From: Minisyncoccota bacterium
GTDB taxonomy: Bacteria; Patescibacteriota; Minisyncoccia; Phycocordibacterales; SBAW01
Assembly (NCBI GenBank): GCA_020050775.1
Contig: JAGVKC010000079.1
Coordinates: 1-24,332 of the forward strand
DNA length: 24,332 nt
Direction: 5' to 3'
This document shows positions 4,606-13,706 of this stretch, in pieces. The notes under the pieces are model-generated. The model was not told the origin of the DNA, made no database searches, and saw only the letters and a program-made list of their open reading frames with translations. Both the position numbers and the translations under genes were made by a program. Every line of letters begins with the position of its first letter. Positions within the stretch are counted from its first letter, which is position 1.

Positions 4606-4848
4606 ATGGGAGACTTAGTCGCGAGCCTCATGTCTGACCCTTATTTCTACTTTGCCGGAGCAATGAGCATTGCTGGCGCCATAGCATTCATAATTTTCTT
4701 ATGGGGCGTTATGGATTACGTATATTCGCACGGTAATGAAGAAGAAAAAGAGCATGGGCGCACGAACATGCTCTGGGGCACTGTGTGGCTGGTGCTTATT
4801 TTTGTAATGTGGGAGTTCGTACGCTTTGTTGCTGGAGTATTCAACTAA
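4606..4848 (+). CDS. Small two-helix membrane protein, TrbC/VirB2-type (T4SS pilin-like)
   Basis: 80 aa. The pattern FIIFLWGVMDYVYSHGNEEEKEHGRTNMLWGTVWLVLIFVMWEFV (hydrophobic helix, SxGxEE..E.G loop, hydrophobic helix) matches CPR pilin-like proteins. A terminator follows immediately. Confidence 0.7.
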   Translation: MGDLVASLMSDPYFYFAGAMSIAGAIAFIIFLWGVMDYVYSHGNEEEKEHGRTNMLWGTVWLVLIFVMWEFVRFVAGVFN

Positions 4849-4874
4849 AAAACCGCCCCTAGGGGCGGTTTTTT
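4847..4874. terminator. Bidirectional intrinsic terminator
   Basis: Perfect 28-bp palindrome AAAAAACCGCCCCTAGGGGCGGTTTTTT between convergent genes, giving a GC stem plus U-tract on both strands. Confidence 0.85.
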
Positions 4875-4932
4875 GTAGTCTAGCGAAGCGAGTGAACAAA
4901 ATTGCTTTTGATTCCGAGCGAGCGACGACTAT
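4875..4932. repeat. Short intergenic GCGAAGCG/CGAGCGAGCG element with imperfect terminal inverted repeat
   Basis: GTAGTC...GACTAT ends enclose GCGAAGCGAG, AACAAAAT and CGAGCGAGCG. The words GAGCAAAAT and GCGAAGCG recur in the atpE-atpF gap (~22400-22421). Confidence 0.35.
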
Positions 4933-4956
4933 ATAAAATTCTTTATTGAGAATTTT

Positions 4957-6000
4957 CTATTTGACGAGAGAGAATTTGCCGTCGCGGGCGCGTTTGAAGT
5001 ATTTCTGATTCTGCAGGTTCACCACGATGGTACCTGGCTTTACATGGCGCTCTTTGAGTACCTTTTCGATAATCTCGTCTTTGTTCATTGGGCCATGTTT
5101 GCGTAGTGCTTCGCGTACAACGTCGCGCACAACGCCCTGAGTGTATCCCTACTCCTTAAGTGCGTACATGCCGCGGCCAACAAGCACAAAGCGGTTGTCC
5201 TTAATGAGTTCGTTATGCGTAGTAGCTACGTGCGCTTTGCGTTCAAACATTTTTTCGATAAGGTTTGCGACTTCTTTGAAGTGCAGTGGTGAGCCATGAT
5301 TTTTAACTGCGAGGTATGCGAAGTCGCGGATGCCCTTGGTTTTTACATTCGGGGACGCAGACTGACCCCATTCGCCAAGCGGGTTTTTGCCTATTGATTT
5401 AGAAATTGAAAGCCAGCGCTTGAGAACTTCCTGGTTGCGATGCTTGTCGTTTATATTCTGGAGTTCTTTTAGAAAACGATCGATCATCTCTCCTTCCGGG
5501 ATAAGTTCTTCGTCTGAAAGACCTTCATAGAGGCCCTTAAGTGCAGTTTCTACTTTGCCTGCGAGTTCTGCATCGACATACCAGCAACGCTGCGCTTCGT
5601 CGTCTTCTTTGCGGTATTTAAACGGATCACCAAGTACAAGAAGGAAGTAGATGTGGTTCTGCATCGACTTATCTTTGGTCATAAAATTAAGAAGGTCATC
5701 TTCGCAGACGATGCCTCCAAGAGAATCAATGATGCGTTCAAGCTCGTCGAACGCTGCATGTGCCTGTCCAAATGCGGGAGACTTTTTAAGTGCTCCAAGA
5801 GCATGGTTTTCGATTTGGCGGACACGCTCGCGGGTGATGCTATAGCGCTTACCAATGGCCTCTAGAGTCACCTTTTCAGTGCTAGAACCAAGGCCAAAAC
5901 GCGCCTCTATAACAGTGCGAGAACGCTCAGGAAGCGCCGAAAGGAGGCGCTTTACGATTACTTTCGGTTTAAACCCAGTTTTGTCCGCTGTCTGTACCAT
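4957..6000 (-). CDS. Sigma-70 region-4 HTH plus tandem winged-helix (HARE-HTH/RpoE-delta-like) protein, interrupted by an in-frame TAG at 5151-5149
   Basis: N-terminal sigma r4 motif (ARFGL...TLEAIGKRYSITRERVRQIE). After YALKE-TAG the same frame continues 63 codons (GYTQGVVRDVVREALRKHGPMNKDEIIEKVLKERHVKPGTIVVNLQNQKYFKRARDGKFSLVK) to TAG at 4959-4957, encoding a second winged helix. Start at 6000 is supported by promoter position. Confidence 0.8.
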
Positions 6001-6014
6001 ATGTTGTGTTGTGT

Positions 6015-6053
6015 AATATATCACACCTTAAACCTCGGGTCAAACCTTGTCAA
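6015..6053 (-). promoter_or_regulatory. Two tandem sigma70-type promoters for the sigma-r4/wHTH gene
   Basis: TTGACC(6043-6038)-N17-TATATT(6020-6015) and TTGACA(6053-6048)-N17-TAAGGT(6030-6025), offset by 10 bp. Confidence 0.55.
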
Positions 6054-10049: not shown

Positions 10050-11501
10050 ATGCTACAAGAAAAGCGTATTGTCGTTAAGTGGGGTGGCGCCTGCATGCGC
10101 AACCTCAGTTCAGTAAAAAAGGCGTGTGAAATCACGCTATCTGACCAAAGAAGGAGTATCGTCGTCGTATCCGCGCCCGGCAAGGACGATGAATACGACA
10201 AGATGACCAACGTGCTTATCCACCTACACCGGGACGACCACCCCGAGAAGTCGCGCAGCGAGATGCTGAACGAAATCGAAGCAAGGTTCGCACAGCTCGC
10301 TACAGGCACGAAATTCAATGCCAAAAGAGAAGTAGAAAAGCTCGGACGTGATCTTGCCGACGGTTCATCCTTCGACTTCATCGTAAGCCGTGGCGAATAC
10401 CTTATGGCGAAGATCATGAGCGAACACCTCGGATTCACGTTTGTGGACGCAAGCACATTCGTTCGCTTTGATGCAGAAGGAAGGCTCAACCTGCAGGAGA
10501 CGCTTGAGCGCGCAGCGCTCTTGTGCAAGCTGCCAAACGCCATCATCCCTGGCTTTTACGGCCAAGCATTCGACGGATCGGTGAAGCTTATGACACGCGG
10601 TGGCACTGATCTTACCAAGACGCTTGTCGCAGCCGGCGTAAAAGCCGAGAAGTGCGAGAACTGGAAAGACGTGACGGGAGTGAAGATGGCTGATCCGAGG
10701 ATCGTAAAGAATCCTCGCACCATCAAAGTTCTCTCTACAAAGGAGATGCGTGAGCTCTCTTACATGGGCTTTGAGGTTTTGCACGAGGAGGCTGTGTTGC
10801 CGCTACGCGGGAAGAATATTCCTATCGAAGTACGCAACATGTGGCTTCCGGAAGAGAAAGGCACGCTGGTCGTCGATGATGCGTATCTACCCGAACATCG
10901 CAACGGAGCGGTCATCGGAATAGCGGGAAAGAAAGACTTCAGCATCATCCGGTTGGAGAAGCGCCTTATGAACCAGGAGCTCGGGTTCTTACATCGTGCT
11001 ACGGGCGTTTTCGCCACACATGCTGTAAATATTGAGCATGTTCCTGGCGGCATCGACACTGTTAGCTTCCTTGTGAGGTCTGAGAACCTTAAAGGTAAGT
11101 TCCCAGCACTTCTTAAGGATCTAGAACAGACGTGCGAACCCGACGAAGTGTGTATAGGGCATAATATCGCCCTTATAAGCGTCGTTGGCAGCGGGATGAC
11201 TAACACTCCTGGCATCCTTGCTCGAGCATCGGGAGCACTTGCATGGTGCGGTATTAATATCCGCATCGTGGACCAAGGTTCCAGCGAACTTAGCATCATC
11301 ATTGGCATCGATAATGATGATTACGAAGCGGCCATACGTGCTCTCTACGCTGAATTTACGGATTCGTGGATGAAGCGGCTCTTTAAGAAAGCATGGTGGT
11401 TCGTTAAAAAGTCACTGAGGCCTGCGCGCAAGCGCAGGCCTTTTTCTTTTCATCTATATAAAACAAACTGGCCGCCACATTCAAGTGGACGGCCAGTGTA
11501 A
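10050..11501 (+). CDS. lysC: Aspartate kinase (monofunctional, two ACT domains), divergent; the C-terminal tail is probably artefactual
   Basis: VVKWGG, VVVSAPGK, SRGEYL, IIPGFYG, TRGGTD, ENWKDVTGVKMADPRIV, RELSYMG..VLH, followed by two ACT repeats ending AIRALYAEF. GAGGGG lies upstream of the ATG. Confidence 0.88.
   Translation: MLQEKRIVVKWGGACMRNLSSVKKACEITLSDQRRSIVVVSAPGKDDEYDKMTNVLIHLHRDDHPEKSRSEMLNEIEARFAQLATGTKFNAKREVEKLGRDLADGSSFDFIVSRGEYLMAKIMSEHLGFTFVDASTFVRFDAEGRLNLQETLERAALLCKLPNAIIPGFYGQAFDGSVKLMTRGGTDLTKTLVAAGVKAEKCENWKDVTGVKMADPRIVKNPRTIKVLSTKEMRELSYMGFEVLHEEAVLPLRGKNIPIEVRNMWLPEEKGTLVVDDAYLPEHRNGAVIGIAGKKDFSIIRLEKRLMNQELGFLHRATGVFATHAVNIEHVPGGIDTVSFLVRSENLKGKFPALLKDLEQTCEPDEVCIGHNIALISVVGSGMTNTPGILARASGALAWCGINIRIVDQGSSELSIIIGIDNDDYEAAIRALYAEFTDSWMKRLFKKAWWFVKKSLRPARKRRPFSFHLYKTNWPPHSSGRPV
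11418..11450 (+). terminator. Intrinsic terminator lying inside the last codons of the lysC ORF
   Basis: 10-bp stem AGGCCTGCGC/GCGCAGGCCT with a GCAA (GNRA) loop, followed by TTTTCTTTT. Confidence 0.8.
11461..11497 (-). terminator. Probable intrinsic terminator for a minus-strand transcript
   Basis: Stem ACTGGCCG/CGGCCAGT plus CCAC/GTGG with one bulge, followed on the minus strand by TTGTTT. It sits back-to-back with the plus-strand lysC terminator. Confidence 0.55.
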
Positions 11502-11654
11502 CGGGAACCGGTGAGAATATATGTAGTACACGCGAGCCCAAGAGCACTTCCTCTATTCATTTCTGAGGCAGAGAGGAATTCTTGCTTGGGTGAATCGTCG
11601 CCTCCCTCTATTTCTATTGGCGAAATTGCCGACTATACCACATTGAAATGTACG

Positions 11655-11872
11655 AGTTGGATGTTTCTTGAACTGCGTCCTCTGGAATACCCGGGAACGT
11701 TCCATCTGGTCCCTATGCAAGGGTGTGAGCGCTTCGTGACGGCATCTTTAGGGAAGGACTTCGCGGCCTAAGCAGCTAATCTCGTCCTTAATCGTATGGT
11801 CAGTCAGTCTGTTCCTCACTTCAGGAATCGCCCAGATACGCCAGAGGGGCAGGTTTCAATACGCACCCAACT
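11655..11872 (-). ncRNA. Candidate structured non-coding RNA, rod-like with a central multibranch region (6S-like geometry, family unassigned)
   Basis: Nested long-range helices: AGUUGGGUG/CAUCCAACU, UUGAA/UUCAA, CUGC/GCAG, CCUCUGG/CCAGAGG, UAUCUGG/CCAGAUG and inner AAGGAC/GUCCUU. The 5' end coincides with the predicted TSS of a near-consensus promoter. Confidence 0.55.
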
Positions 11873-11878
11873 TATATT

Positions 11879-11907
11879 AGTATACACCCTCTAACATATT
11901 TTGTCAA
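11879..11907 (-). promoter_or_regulatory. Near-consensus sigma70 promoter firing into a gene-free region
   Basis: TTGACA (11907-11902), 17-bp spacer, TATACT (11884-11879). Predicted TSS about 11872. Confidence 0.75.
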
Positions 11908-11951
11908 TAGCTACAAAAAAGCTACGAATGAAGGAATTCCATGACATCTCC

Positions 11952-11985
11952 CAATGTTGCCCATGCTCACATGGCCGCAACATTG
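11952..11985. other. Stable hairpin downstream of ychF without a U-tract
   Basis: CAATGTTGC/GCAACATTG (9 bp) plus CCATG/CATGG (5 bp), with a 2-nt bulge and a CTCA loop. Confidence 0.5.
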
Positions 11986-12032
11986 AGGATCCCGAGGAGT
12001 ATACGACGAGGGAACAAGGAACAACGATTTAA

Positions 12033-13133
12033 CTAAGAATGTAAAAATTCTATAACATCACCATCTCGAACTACGTATTCCTTCCCTTCTGTACGAAGAT
12101 GCCCTAGCTCGCGAGCCTTCGCGTACGAACCATCTTGCAGAAGCGTGTTCCAAGGAATAACTTCAGCACGGATAAATTTAGTTTGAAAGTCTGTGTGTAT
12201 CGCAGCACCCGCTTCAGGAGCAGTCGAACCGATTTTAATAGTCCATGCGCGCGTTTCTTCTGGGCCCGTAGTAAAGAAGCTCATAAGTCCAAGAAGTTCA
12301 TATCCTGCGCGAATAAGGCTGTTTATCCCGTCGTCAAAAACTCCATACTCCTGGCGGAAGGACACTTTGTCTTCCGTATGGAGTTCGCGTAGTTCACTTT
12401 CTACATGTGCATCCACCACAACATATTTCGCGTTCTGTGTTTCAAAATAATGTATAAGCGCTTCAAAACGGCCATCGTTAAGCTCATCGAGATTGTGGCC
12501 GCCCGCTTCCTTGTTTAGTACATAAAGAATCGGCTTCATCGTAAGAAGGTGCAAATCTTTAATAGCTTCGAGTTCTTTTTTAGAAAGATCTGCAGTTGAA
12601 GCAAGCGCTCCCGCAGCAAGTACTTTAGAAACTTTTTCTGCTGCATCTTTAAGCACGACGGCTTCTTTGTCGCCGCGTTTCACATCGCGCTCCAAGGTTC
12701 CCAAGCGCTTCTCTACAGTAGAAAGATCTGCAAGGGCTAACTCAAAATTTATAGTTTCAATATCGCGCACCGGGTCAACGGTGCCTGCAACGTGCCCTAT
12801 GTTGGAGTTATCGAAAATACGCACTACCTGAGCAATAGCATCTGTTTCGCGGATATGCGACAGGAATTGGTTACCAAGGCCCTCGCCTTCTGCGGCACCT
12901 TTTACAAGACCTGCAATGTCGACGAATTCAATAGCTGCGGGAAGCGTTTTTACGGAGCTGCTGAATTTTGAAAGCTGGTCTAGCCTTTCGTCCGGCACTG
13001 CTACCACTCCAACAGAAGGGTCGATGGTAGCGAACGGATAATTAGCAACCAAAACGCTCTTTTTTGTAAGAGCGTTGAAAAGAGTAGACTTCCCGACGTT
13101 CGGGAGCCCGACGATACCTATGCTTAATGCCAT
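12033..13133 (-). CDS. ychF: Redox-regulated ribosome-binding ATPase YchF (Obg family)
   Basis: GIVGLPNVGKSTLFNALT, ANYPFATIDP, FVDIAGLVKGA..GEGLGNQFL, FFTTGPEETRAWT and TGS-domain EGKEYVVRDGDVI. Confidence 0.97.
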   Translation of the reverse strand: MALSIGIVGLPNVGKSTLFNALTKKSVLVANYPFATIDPSVGVVAVPDERLDQLSKFSSSVKTLPAAIEFVDIAGLVKGAAEGEGLGNQFLSHIRETDAIAQVVRIFDNSNIGHVAGTVDPVRDIETINFELALADLSTVEKRLGTLERDVKRGDKEAVVLKDAAEKVSKVLAAGALASTADLSKKELEAIKDLHLLTMKPILYVLNKEAGGHNLDELNDGRFEALIHYFETQNAKYVVVDAHVESELRELHTEDKVSFRQEYGVFDDGINSLIRAGYELLGLMSFFTTGPEETRAWTIKIGSTAPEAGAAIHTDFQTKFIRAEVIPWNTLLQDGSYAKARELGHLRTEGKEYVVRDGDVIEFLHS

Positions 13134-13282
13134 TGACACCTATACTGACAAAAAAACCTTATCTTGTATAGCGTTTAGCTTGACTACAGCTCAAACGCAA
13201 TATATACCTACGACGGGTAGAACCCAAGCAGTAATGCTTTTCACTGACGCCCGAGAGGGTCCTAGAGAATAGGAAATGTGAA

Positions 13283-13675
13283 ATGAAGAAAGCCGCAGAA
13301 AAACTTCTTAGCGGATCACAACATATTGACCTCATGAAGAGAGAGATAAAGACCATTGAGGATTTATTGAGACATCTTCTTCAACGTAAAAACGAGAGCC
13401 ATCACGCGTTTACAGACAAGAATCCTCTCCTCATTGGCACGAAGCACTGTGCGTGGAAAATATTCAATTACCCGAATTCTGGAGTCACTCATCTCTCATG
13501 CGAGTTGAATGATTCCGCAGCGAAAAACCTTGGATTTGGAAGGAATCATCTTTCCTTTCACCACAGTTCTGTTAAAAGGATTCATGAGGATCTTGAAGAG
13601 TTTCTGCAAAAACTATTGAAAAAAGTGCCAGACTTAGAACACAATTTGTCACCGTTTTTCGAAGCGGCGTCATAA
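13283..13675 (+). CDS. Hypothetical protein (orphan-like, 130 aa)
   Basis: Fills the gap between ychF and a convergent gene. AGGA lies upstream of the ATG and a terminator follows the TAA directly. No recognised domain. Confidence 0.7.
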   Translation: MKKAAEKLLSGSQHIDLMKREIKTIEDLLRHLLQRKNESHHAFTDKNPLLIGTKHCAWKIFNYPNSGVTHLSCELNDSAAKNLGFGRNHLSFHHSSVKRIHEDLEEFLQKLLKKVPDLEHNLSPFFEAAS

Positions 13676-13681
13676 ACTACC

Positions 13682-13703
13682 AGCCCCCGCGTCAGCGGGG
13701 GCT
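13682..13703. terminator. Terminator hairpin between convergent genes
   Basis: 9-bp stem AGCCCCCGC/GCGGGGGCT with a GTCA loop, between the stops at 13675 and 13707. U-tracts are weak. Confidence 0.7.
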
Positions 13704-13706
13704 ACT

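Follow-up and report, generated by a model that had tools for sequence, protein, structure and literature searches.

A promoter-to-terminator unit between ychF and lysC in a Minisyncoccota bacterium as a candidate lineage-specific non-coding RNA gene

Among described systems, those closest in outline to the locus reported here are 6S RNA (SsrS; Rfam families RF00013 and, for 6S-Flavo, RF01685) and the 6S-like RNA Ms1. These are non-coding RNAs of the ~200-nucleotide (nt) class, transcribed from a strong housekeeping promoter and closed by pairing of their two ends in a long, interrupted stem. A second comparison is with the ordinary intergenic small RNAs (sRNAs) of bacteria, which have a promoter, a non-coding body and a Rho-independent terminator placed between convergent genes, and a distribution limited to one lineage. 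Here we analyze a putative transcription unit of ~410 nt that lies on the minus strand between the convergent genes ychF and lysC of a Minisyncoccota bacterium (assembly GCA_020050775.1; 554 kb in 84 contigs, ~90% complete). The whole stretch analyzed, hereafter the window, is the 24,332-nt contig JAGVKC010000079.1, which we call C60.

The unit resembles 6S RNA and Ms1 in the size class of its 5' domain, in the absence of a coding region, in the type of its promoter and in the pairing of the two ends of that domain. Unlike 6S RNA, it has no covariance-model match at any threshold tried, no well-defined central bubble and no conservation that we could find, and it is extended at the 3' end by 190 nt that contain two more hairpins. 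Its promoter, non-coding body, Rho-independent terminator, position between convergent genes and confinement to one lineage are those of an ordinary intergenic sRNA, although it is longer than most (~410 nt) and no single-stranded seed or target is evident; a BLASTN search of the unit against its own genome returned promoter paralogues only and no other complementarity. In kind, the unit is an ordinary intergenic sRNA candidate, and it is not a 6S/Ms1 member by any testable criterion. Reading from the sequence, we tentatively favor a lineage-specific, stand-alone non-coding RNA gene. The unit comprises the following features.

11907-11879, minus strand: sigma-70-type promoter (TTGACA, a 17-nt spacer ending in GGGTG, and TATACT; 11/12 match)
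11872-11655, minus strand: foldable 218-nt 5' domain ("rod"), with ~35 robust outer base pairs (bp) and an ill-defined interior
11705-11553, minus strand: Arg-rich open reading frame (ORF) of 50 amino acids (aa), or 55 aa from a TTG at 11720, judged not coding
11590-11537, minus strand: long internal hairpin, present in both the minimum free energy (MFE) and the centroid structure of the complete 418-nt transcript
11497-11461, minus strand: the unit's intrinsic terminator, whose 8+4 bp stem has a single bulged U and leads into a UUUGUUUUAU tract

The original prediction began from a TTGACA-N17-TATACT promoter at 11907-11879 on the minus strand, and this element was borne out by both the 11/12 match and the presence of the genome's own extended consensus. 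In a genome-wide census, 27 promoter sites scored at least 11/12, where ~7 would be expected by chance according to our own calculation (~4-fold enrichment). All but one of the sites (26/27) lie outside long ORFs, and most lie 0-130 nt ahead of one. In most of them AAA follows the -35 hexamer and GGGTG precedes the -10 hexamer, and the site at 11907-11879 has both. The extended strong-promoter consensus of the organism can be written (G)TAC-TTGACA-AAA-N9-10-GGGTG-TATAMT. Paralogous promoter sites on two other contigs, C62 and C7 (C7:3912-3944), align to the unit promoter over 34-42 nt, the 42-nt match being to C62:182-223 (E = 1.7e-4). A further example of the strong sites is C43:~1263. One strong promoter drives 16S rRNA through a ~340-nt leader, and the C62 promoter has the look of one that serves a leaderless mRNA, only 3 nt separating its -10 hexamer from an ATG. 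Judged by its sequence, the unit promoter is very probably real, and transcription would start at ~11872, a site inferred from its position 7 nt past the -10 hexamer.

At the other end of the unit, the hairpin at 11590-11537 and the stem and U-tract at 11497-11461 both persist when the full 418-nt transcript is folded. The plus strand of the terminator region has no U-tract, and the terminator is thus specific to the minus strand; a simple terminator scan missed it because of the bulge. It stands back to back with the terminator of lysC, whose hairpin lies 20 nt beyond.

We found no sign that the sequence between promoter and terminator encodes a protein. The 50/55-aa Arg-rich ORF at 11705-11553 exists as described, with AGGGA 4 nt ahead of its AUG. 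Its codon-usage log-ratio is -0.28, compared with 0.30 +/- 0.13 for 50-codon windows of real genes (0/400 as low), and 88% of spurious ORFs of similar length outscore it. In a six-frame sliding scan of 11400-12032 the codon score never exceeded 0.17, whereas the ychF frame next door scored 0.2-0.49, and Pfam searches gave no match for the 55-aa or 86-aa ORFs of the region. An alternative genetic code was rejected, since translation table 25 opens no ORF in the spacer and TGA serves as a stop codon here, ending 46/264 long ORFs. A pseudogene remnant was likewise rejected for want of residual coding signal and protein similarity, and recent decay is unlikely. By these sequence measures the unit is non-coding, and its initial description as self-contained and apparently non-coding still fits, given the promoter, the minus-strand-only terminator and the lack of coding signal in six frames.

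The 5' domain was proposed to be a 218-nt rod-like RNA closed by five nested helices. It does fold, with an MFE of -76.2 kcal/mol and a z-score of -3.39 against 200 dinucleotide shuffles, none of which folded as well; the plus strand of the same region reaches a z-score of only -1.16. The closing helix AGUUGGGUG/CAUCCAACU and the next three (UUGAA/UUCAA, CUGC/GCAG and CCUCUGG/CCAGAGG) have pair probabilities of 0.9-1.0, and the rod fold is retained when the whole 418-nt transcript is folded. The fifth helix, UAUCUGG/CCAGAUG, did not hold: its probability is 0, forcing it yields -64.1 instead of -76.2 kcal/mol (a cost of 12 kcal/mol), and in the ensemble GUAUCUGGG pairs with CCCGGGUAU in its place. 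The two hairpins proposed for the junction also parted ways, CCCU/AGGG being formed with a probability of 0.95 and UUCCU/AGGAA with one of 0.03. The inner arm (UGAC..CAU/AUG..GUCA and AAGGAC/GUCCUU), with pair probabilities of only 0.36-0.7, could not be confirmed. In these models, the preference of the fold for the minus strand (z -3.39 versus -1.16) and outer helices at probabilities near 1 speak for an RNA gene.

What can be read from the DNA itself is a promoter, a terminator, an absence of coding signal and a 5' domain able to fold, with a robust outer stem. From these we infer transcription, any 3' processing near 11655, functional retention and a mode of action, as follows. Housekeeping RNA polymerase holoenzyme would start at ~11872, at a strong promoter of the kind usual in this organism, and would transcribe ~410 nt of the minus strand before stopping at the unit's own terminator (11497-11461), immediately ahead of the one that serves the convergent lysC. 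The first 218 nt of the transcript would pair end to end through ~35 robust bp around a loose interior, with two hairpins following. Such an RNA would most likely act in trans as a regulator or by binding protein; our leading guess, from the outline only, would be a 6S-like decoy of RNA polymerase.

A number of results weigh against a functional RNA gene. The interior of the rod (nt 46-170) is undefined, with 14% of positions partnered at p > 0.9, and in the MFE structure it consists of 8x7 and 12x12 internal loops with no stable flanking stems. When the rod is compared with sliding 218-nt stretches on both strands of the window, corrected for GC content, it has a z-score of -1.5 and ranks 265/4020. 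Among register-optimised local folds of the same 24 kb, where each structure picks its own register (span <=230, length >=170), it ranks 59/293, behind many stretches of coding sequence. The structural case for the rod is thus weaker than its shuffle z-score suggests. Its ranks against the genomic background are unremarkable, and thermodynamics give no reason to see it as selected.

Searches for relatives of the unit point the same way. No match was obtained by BLASTN against 60 relatives, and a covariance model (R1) built from the single rod sequence and its MFE structure found none in 79 same-genus genomes or in 150 genomes that represent 130 genera of the order; run with filters off on 22 ychF loci, it returned nothing (<=11 bits). 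Such a single-sequence model is of limited reach at this divergence; BLASTN still found the conserved part of RNase P RNA. Phage and plasmid collections held no match to the unit, and in tblastx comparisons of the regions downstream of relatives' ychF only the ychF tail matched. With regard to synteny, most same-genus genomes have a DUF5671 gene directly after ychF. Two genomes, G013 and G080, share the order ychF, convergent lysC, DUF5671 and LeuRS, and their ychF-lysC spacers are only ~225 and ~35 nt long, without such a unit. One possible positional analogue was rejected, as the 700-nt gap after ychF in genome G009 holds small opposite-strand ORFs and no similar RNA. A search of sequencing runs found the sequence in three low-depth DNA runs (one drinking-water study) and in no RNA run. 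Family models gave no support either: cmscan with Rfam 15 returned no match in the window at gathering score, terminator look-alikes only on 11250-12100 at E <= 10, and nothing on the rod alone at that threshold. Within the reach of BLASTN, the covariance model and synteny, then, the homologues on which the original prediction had staked itself did not appear.

Not finding homologues carries limited weight, as public data contain no close relative of the species. The nearest ychF among 100 same-genus species genomes is 75% identical, and the best among ychF-anchored metagenome loci is 71% identical. For lysC, the maximum identity among 5.8 billion proteins is 46%, and its cluster has one member from one contig; at lysC-anchored genome loci the maximum is 36%. 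By these sequence comparisons the host species stands alone in the public data searched, and the unit appears, as far as can be seen, to be private to the host lineage.

The same Rfam searches bear on the housekeeping RNAs that had been considered at the outset. The region shows no match to 6S RNA, RNase P RNA, transfer-messenger RNA (tmRNA) or signal recognition particle (SRP) RNA. RNase P RNA was rejected because the region matches neither RF00010 nor RF00011 and the genome's copy is on contig C59, where relatives' RNase P RNAs match C59:100-187 (the 3' ~88 nt) at 84% identity; the gene is cut by the contig end (C59:1-187), which explains its being missed when the genome was searched with Rfam. 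Canonical RNase P RNA occurs in 22/24 same-genus genomes. For tmRNA (RF00023), ARAGORN found none in the window or the genome and cmscan none in the region; because the five nearest relatives carry a canonical tmRNA, that of the host genome is probably unassembled. SRP RNA (RF00169/RF01854) was rejected for lack of a model match and of a helix-8 motif in the region, and a pattern search of the whole genome gave no convincing helix-8 motif. A lysine riboswitch (RF00168) gave no match at E <= 10, and the unit, on the strand opposite to lysC, is 3' of that gene.

A side observation emerged from the SRP searches. RF00169 was found in 0/41 relatives and RF01854 in 0/5; the Ffh M domain (PF02978) was found in 0/6 genomes and the SRP-GTPase domain (PF00448) in 0/5 and in 0/41 genomes across the phylum, with 14/14 controls positive. 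In the host genome, which contains no Ns, ORFs of more than 150 aa include no DTAGR or GEKxxDL SRP-GTPase motif, and no Ffh or FtsY was found. Genomes of the candidate phyla radiation (CPR) have been annotated with ffh and ftsY. Either the SRP pathway is absent from these bacteria or the search fails on them.

The alternative that survives best is a functionless transcript, which we consider nearly as likely as a non-coding RNA gene. Here a real promoter behind ychF would read into a rearranged spacer, the terminator would only shield lysC from antisense transcription, and the rod would be a chance fold. The rod's ranks against the genome's own sequence (59/293 and 265/4020) and the failure to find conservation anywhere searched are what this explanation would lead one to expect, as is the rearranged state of the surroundings, where we distinguish the following features.

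13139-12033, minus strand: ychF, with YchF-GTPase_C and MMR_HSR1 domains
11952-12032, minus strand: 81-nt insert with a 14-bp hairpin (11952-11985) and a fold of -20 kcal/mol, single copy in the genome
11951-11920, minus strand: displaced second ychF C terminus (GDVMEFLHS plus stop), which matches relatives' ychF tails in tblastx
10050-11501, plus strand: aspartate kinase gene lysC, convergent with ychF
11417-11450, plus strand: lysC terminator, an 11-bp stem and T-tract that gives terminator-like partial cmscan matches

The unit sits between ychF and lysC in a gene-free spacer of ~660 nt (~11375-12032). The active ychF ends at 12033 with the tail GDVIEFLHS, and the displaced tail follows this stop at a distance of 81 nt and precedes the promoter by 12 nt. 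The two tails differ almost only by synonymous changes, and both the I and the M variant occur within the genus. An assembly artefact at the duplicated tail was rejected on the strength of unitigs from three independent runs that span the junction (11783-12022, 11870-12080 and 11942-12175) and match with 0 differences; the DNA, including the odd junction, is therefore real. In a genome-wide check, the arrangement seen behind ychF at 11920-12062 recurred behind two other genes, at C49:20604-20719 and C50:6630-6921. In all three genes the last ~9 codons plus the stop are displaced by 33-209 nt past the active stop with near-only synonymous differences, and in the C49 case all six shared residues use different synonymous codons. 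The three inserts that precede the displaced tails are unrelated in sequence. Two further loci, L030 and L031, have a degenerate second ychF tail downstream of ychF. From their sequences, the displaced tails look like scars left when DNA from diverged relatives replaced genes, or like the work of a small element landing on stop codons. We read them as scars, produced by homologous crossover at one flank and illegitimate joining at the other.

The far side of the spacer is also irregular. Homology of lysC ends near residue 437-440, and 89% of the ORF is covered by its 120 best homologues, all of which measure 433-450 aa. The last ~46 codons (window 11363-11501) are unshared and read through the gene's own terminator at 11417-11450. 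The natural stop seems to have been lost, perhaps at the TGG after ...AEFTDS, or else a low-coverage sequencing error is present; if the stop was lost, the terminated lysC mRNA would be without a stop codon.

The duplicated ychF tail, the 46-codon overrun of lysC and the absence of the unit from genomes with the same gene order all suit a functionless transcript. Set against it is the cost: ~410 nt of useless DNA behind one of the strongest types of promoter would be unexpected in a gene-dense genome of ~0.55 Mb. Nor does the explanation account easily for the unit having a terminator of its own with the lysC hairpin just 20 nt on. Finally, the displaced tail implies that, prior to the rearrangement, the unit would have followed immediately on the original stop of ychF, which would make it native DNA rather than scar debris and older than the scar.

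It is rather unlikely that nothing is transcribed and that the promoter- and terminator-like sites are chance occurrences or relics in a decaying spacer. The absence of the sequence from RNA runs is in keeping with this explanation, as are the ~7 promoter sites of such quality expected by chance at this genome size. The distribution of these sites argues otherwise, with 26/27 outside ORFs in a gene-dense genome, as do the agreement of the unit's site with the extended consensus beyond both hexamers and its pairing with a correctly oriented terminator.

A true 6S RNA (SsrS) homologue or analogue, in which the rod would mimic an open promoter and sequester sigma-70 holoenzyme, seems improbable to us. 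Some evidence favors it. The domain measures 218 nt, for a 6S size criterion of ~150-220 nt; its 5' and 3' ends pair from the predicted start site in a long closing stem with outer helices at 0.9-1.0, the end at 11655 being hypothetical and the terminator lying 190 nt on. The niche also appears unfilled, in that Rfam finds no 6S match in the genome or, at gathering score, in 40 relatives. We found no literature linking 6S RNA with the CPR. Against this assignment, the 6S models (RF00013 and related) match nothing in the window, on 11250-12100, on the rod alone or in the whole genome, and relaxing the threshold to E <= 10 for the rod brought none. The predicted fold does not define a two-sided central bubble, interior pair probabilities being 0.0-0.7. 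Conservation of the unit was not found, whereas 6S RNA is normally conserved within lineages, and the ~190-nt 3' trailer would need to be removed. The 6S-like geometry suggested in the original prediction therefore stands in outline only, without a model match, without a defined interior and without unusual stability of the rod.

Least of all do we credit an mRNA in which a structured leader would control translation of the 50-aa ORF by sequestering its Shine-Dalgarno sequence and AUG, a disfavored and very improbable explanation for which the ORF, the AGGGA 4 nt before its AUG and the pairing of AGGG in a small hairpin (p 0.95) can be cited, and against which stand a codon score of -0.28 (below all 400 real-gene windows and 88% of spurious ORFs), the failure of every frame to show coding signal and of Pfam to give a match, and a probability of 0 for the helix proposed over the AUG, so that sequestration is only half present because the AUG is unpaired.

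Other observations concern the wider genomic setting. The gene content of the window is of the CPR/Patescibacteria type, with a DUF5671 protein and with lysC relatives in metagenome-assembled genomes of the Parcubacteria group. The most stable 218-nt folding windows of the 24 kb are at 4669-4994 (+) and 11233-11630 (+), with GC-corrected z-scores of -3.1 to -4.4; the former falls in a 570-nt gap preceding 5149-6024, and the latter is the cluster of back-to-back terminators and hairpins described above. Upstream of ychF is a lineage-specific 567-nt insert (window 13140-13706) that holds a 130-aa opposite-strand ORF (13283-13675) without a Pfam match. In genome G080, a conserved 204-aa neighbor directly adjoins ychF.

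The genome also contains two other units that run from promoter to terminator without an ORF, and such units are in this sense recurrent in it. The first, at C61:2757-~3050 (+) (L130:258-572), has an 11/12 promoter, ~290 nt and a strong terminator. It folds into multiple hairpins (MFE -114.5, z -5.3 versus shuffles), and it has no Rfam match at E <= 1 and no BLASTN match in 40 same-genus genomes. The second, at C77:8178-~7943 (-) (L131:440-680), has a 12/12 promoter and spans ~235 nt (MFE -91.5, z -4.7); it has no Rfam match, and BLASTN gave a terminator-sized match only, in 1/40 same-genus genomes.

To return to the non-coding RNA gene that we tentatively favor, a more ambitious version of it can be put forward as speculation. 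The rod might be a working, fast-evolving RNA-polymerase-binding RNA of the 6S/Ms1 type, or another protein-sequestering RNA, private to an unsampled CPR lineage, and together with the C61 and C77 units it might replace protein regulators in a genome of 0.55 Mb. We regard this as a long shot. A single locus cannot carry a claim about a regulatory layer, and this one is an orphan from a singleton species whose fold is unexceptional for its genome. A 6S-type RNA here would be of interest if true, in view of the lack of a gathering-score 6S match in 40 relatives. CPR bacteria are ultra-small and have few protein regulators, and their regulatory RNAs are, to our knowledge, almost entirely uncharacterized. 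If expressed and functional, units such as the one described here would be part of the missing regulatory layer of the CPR.

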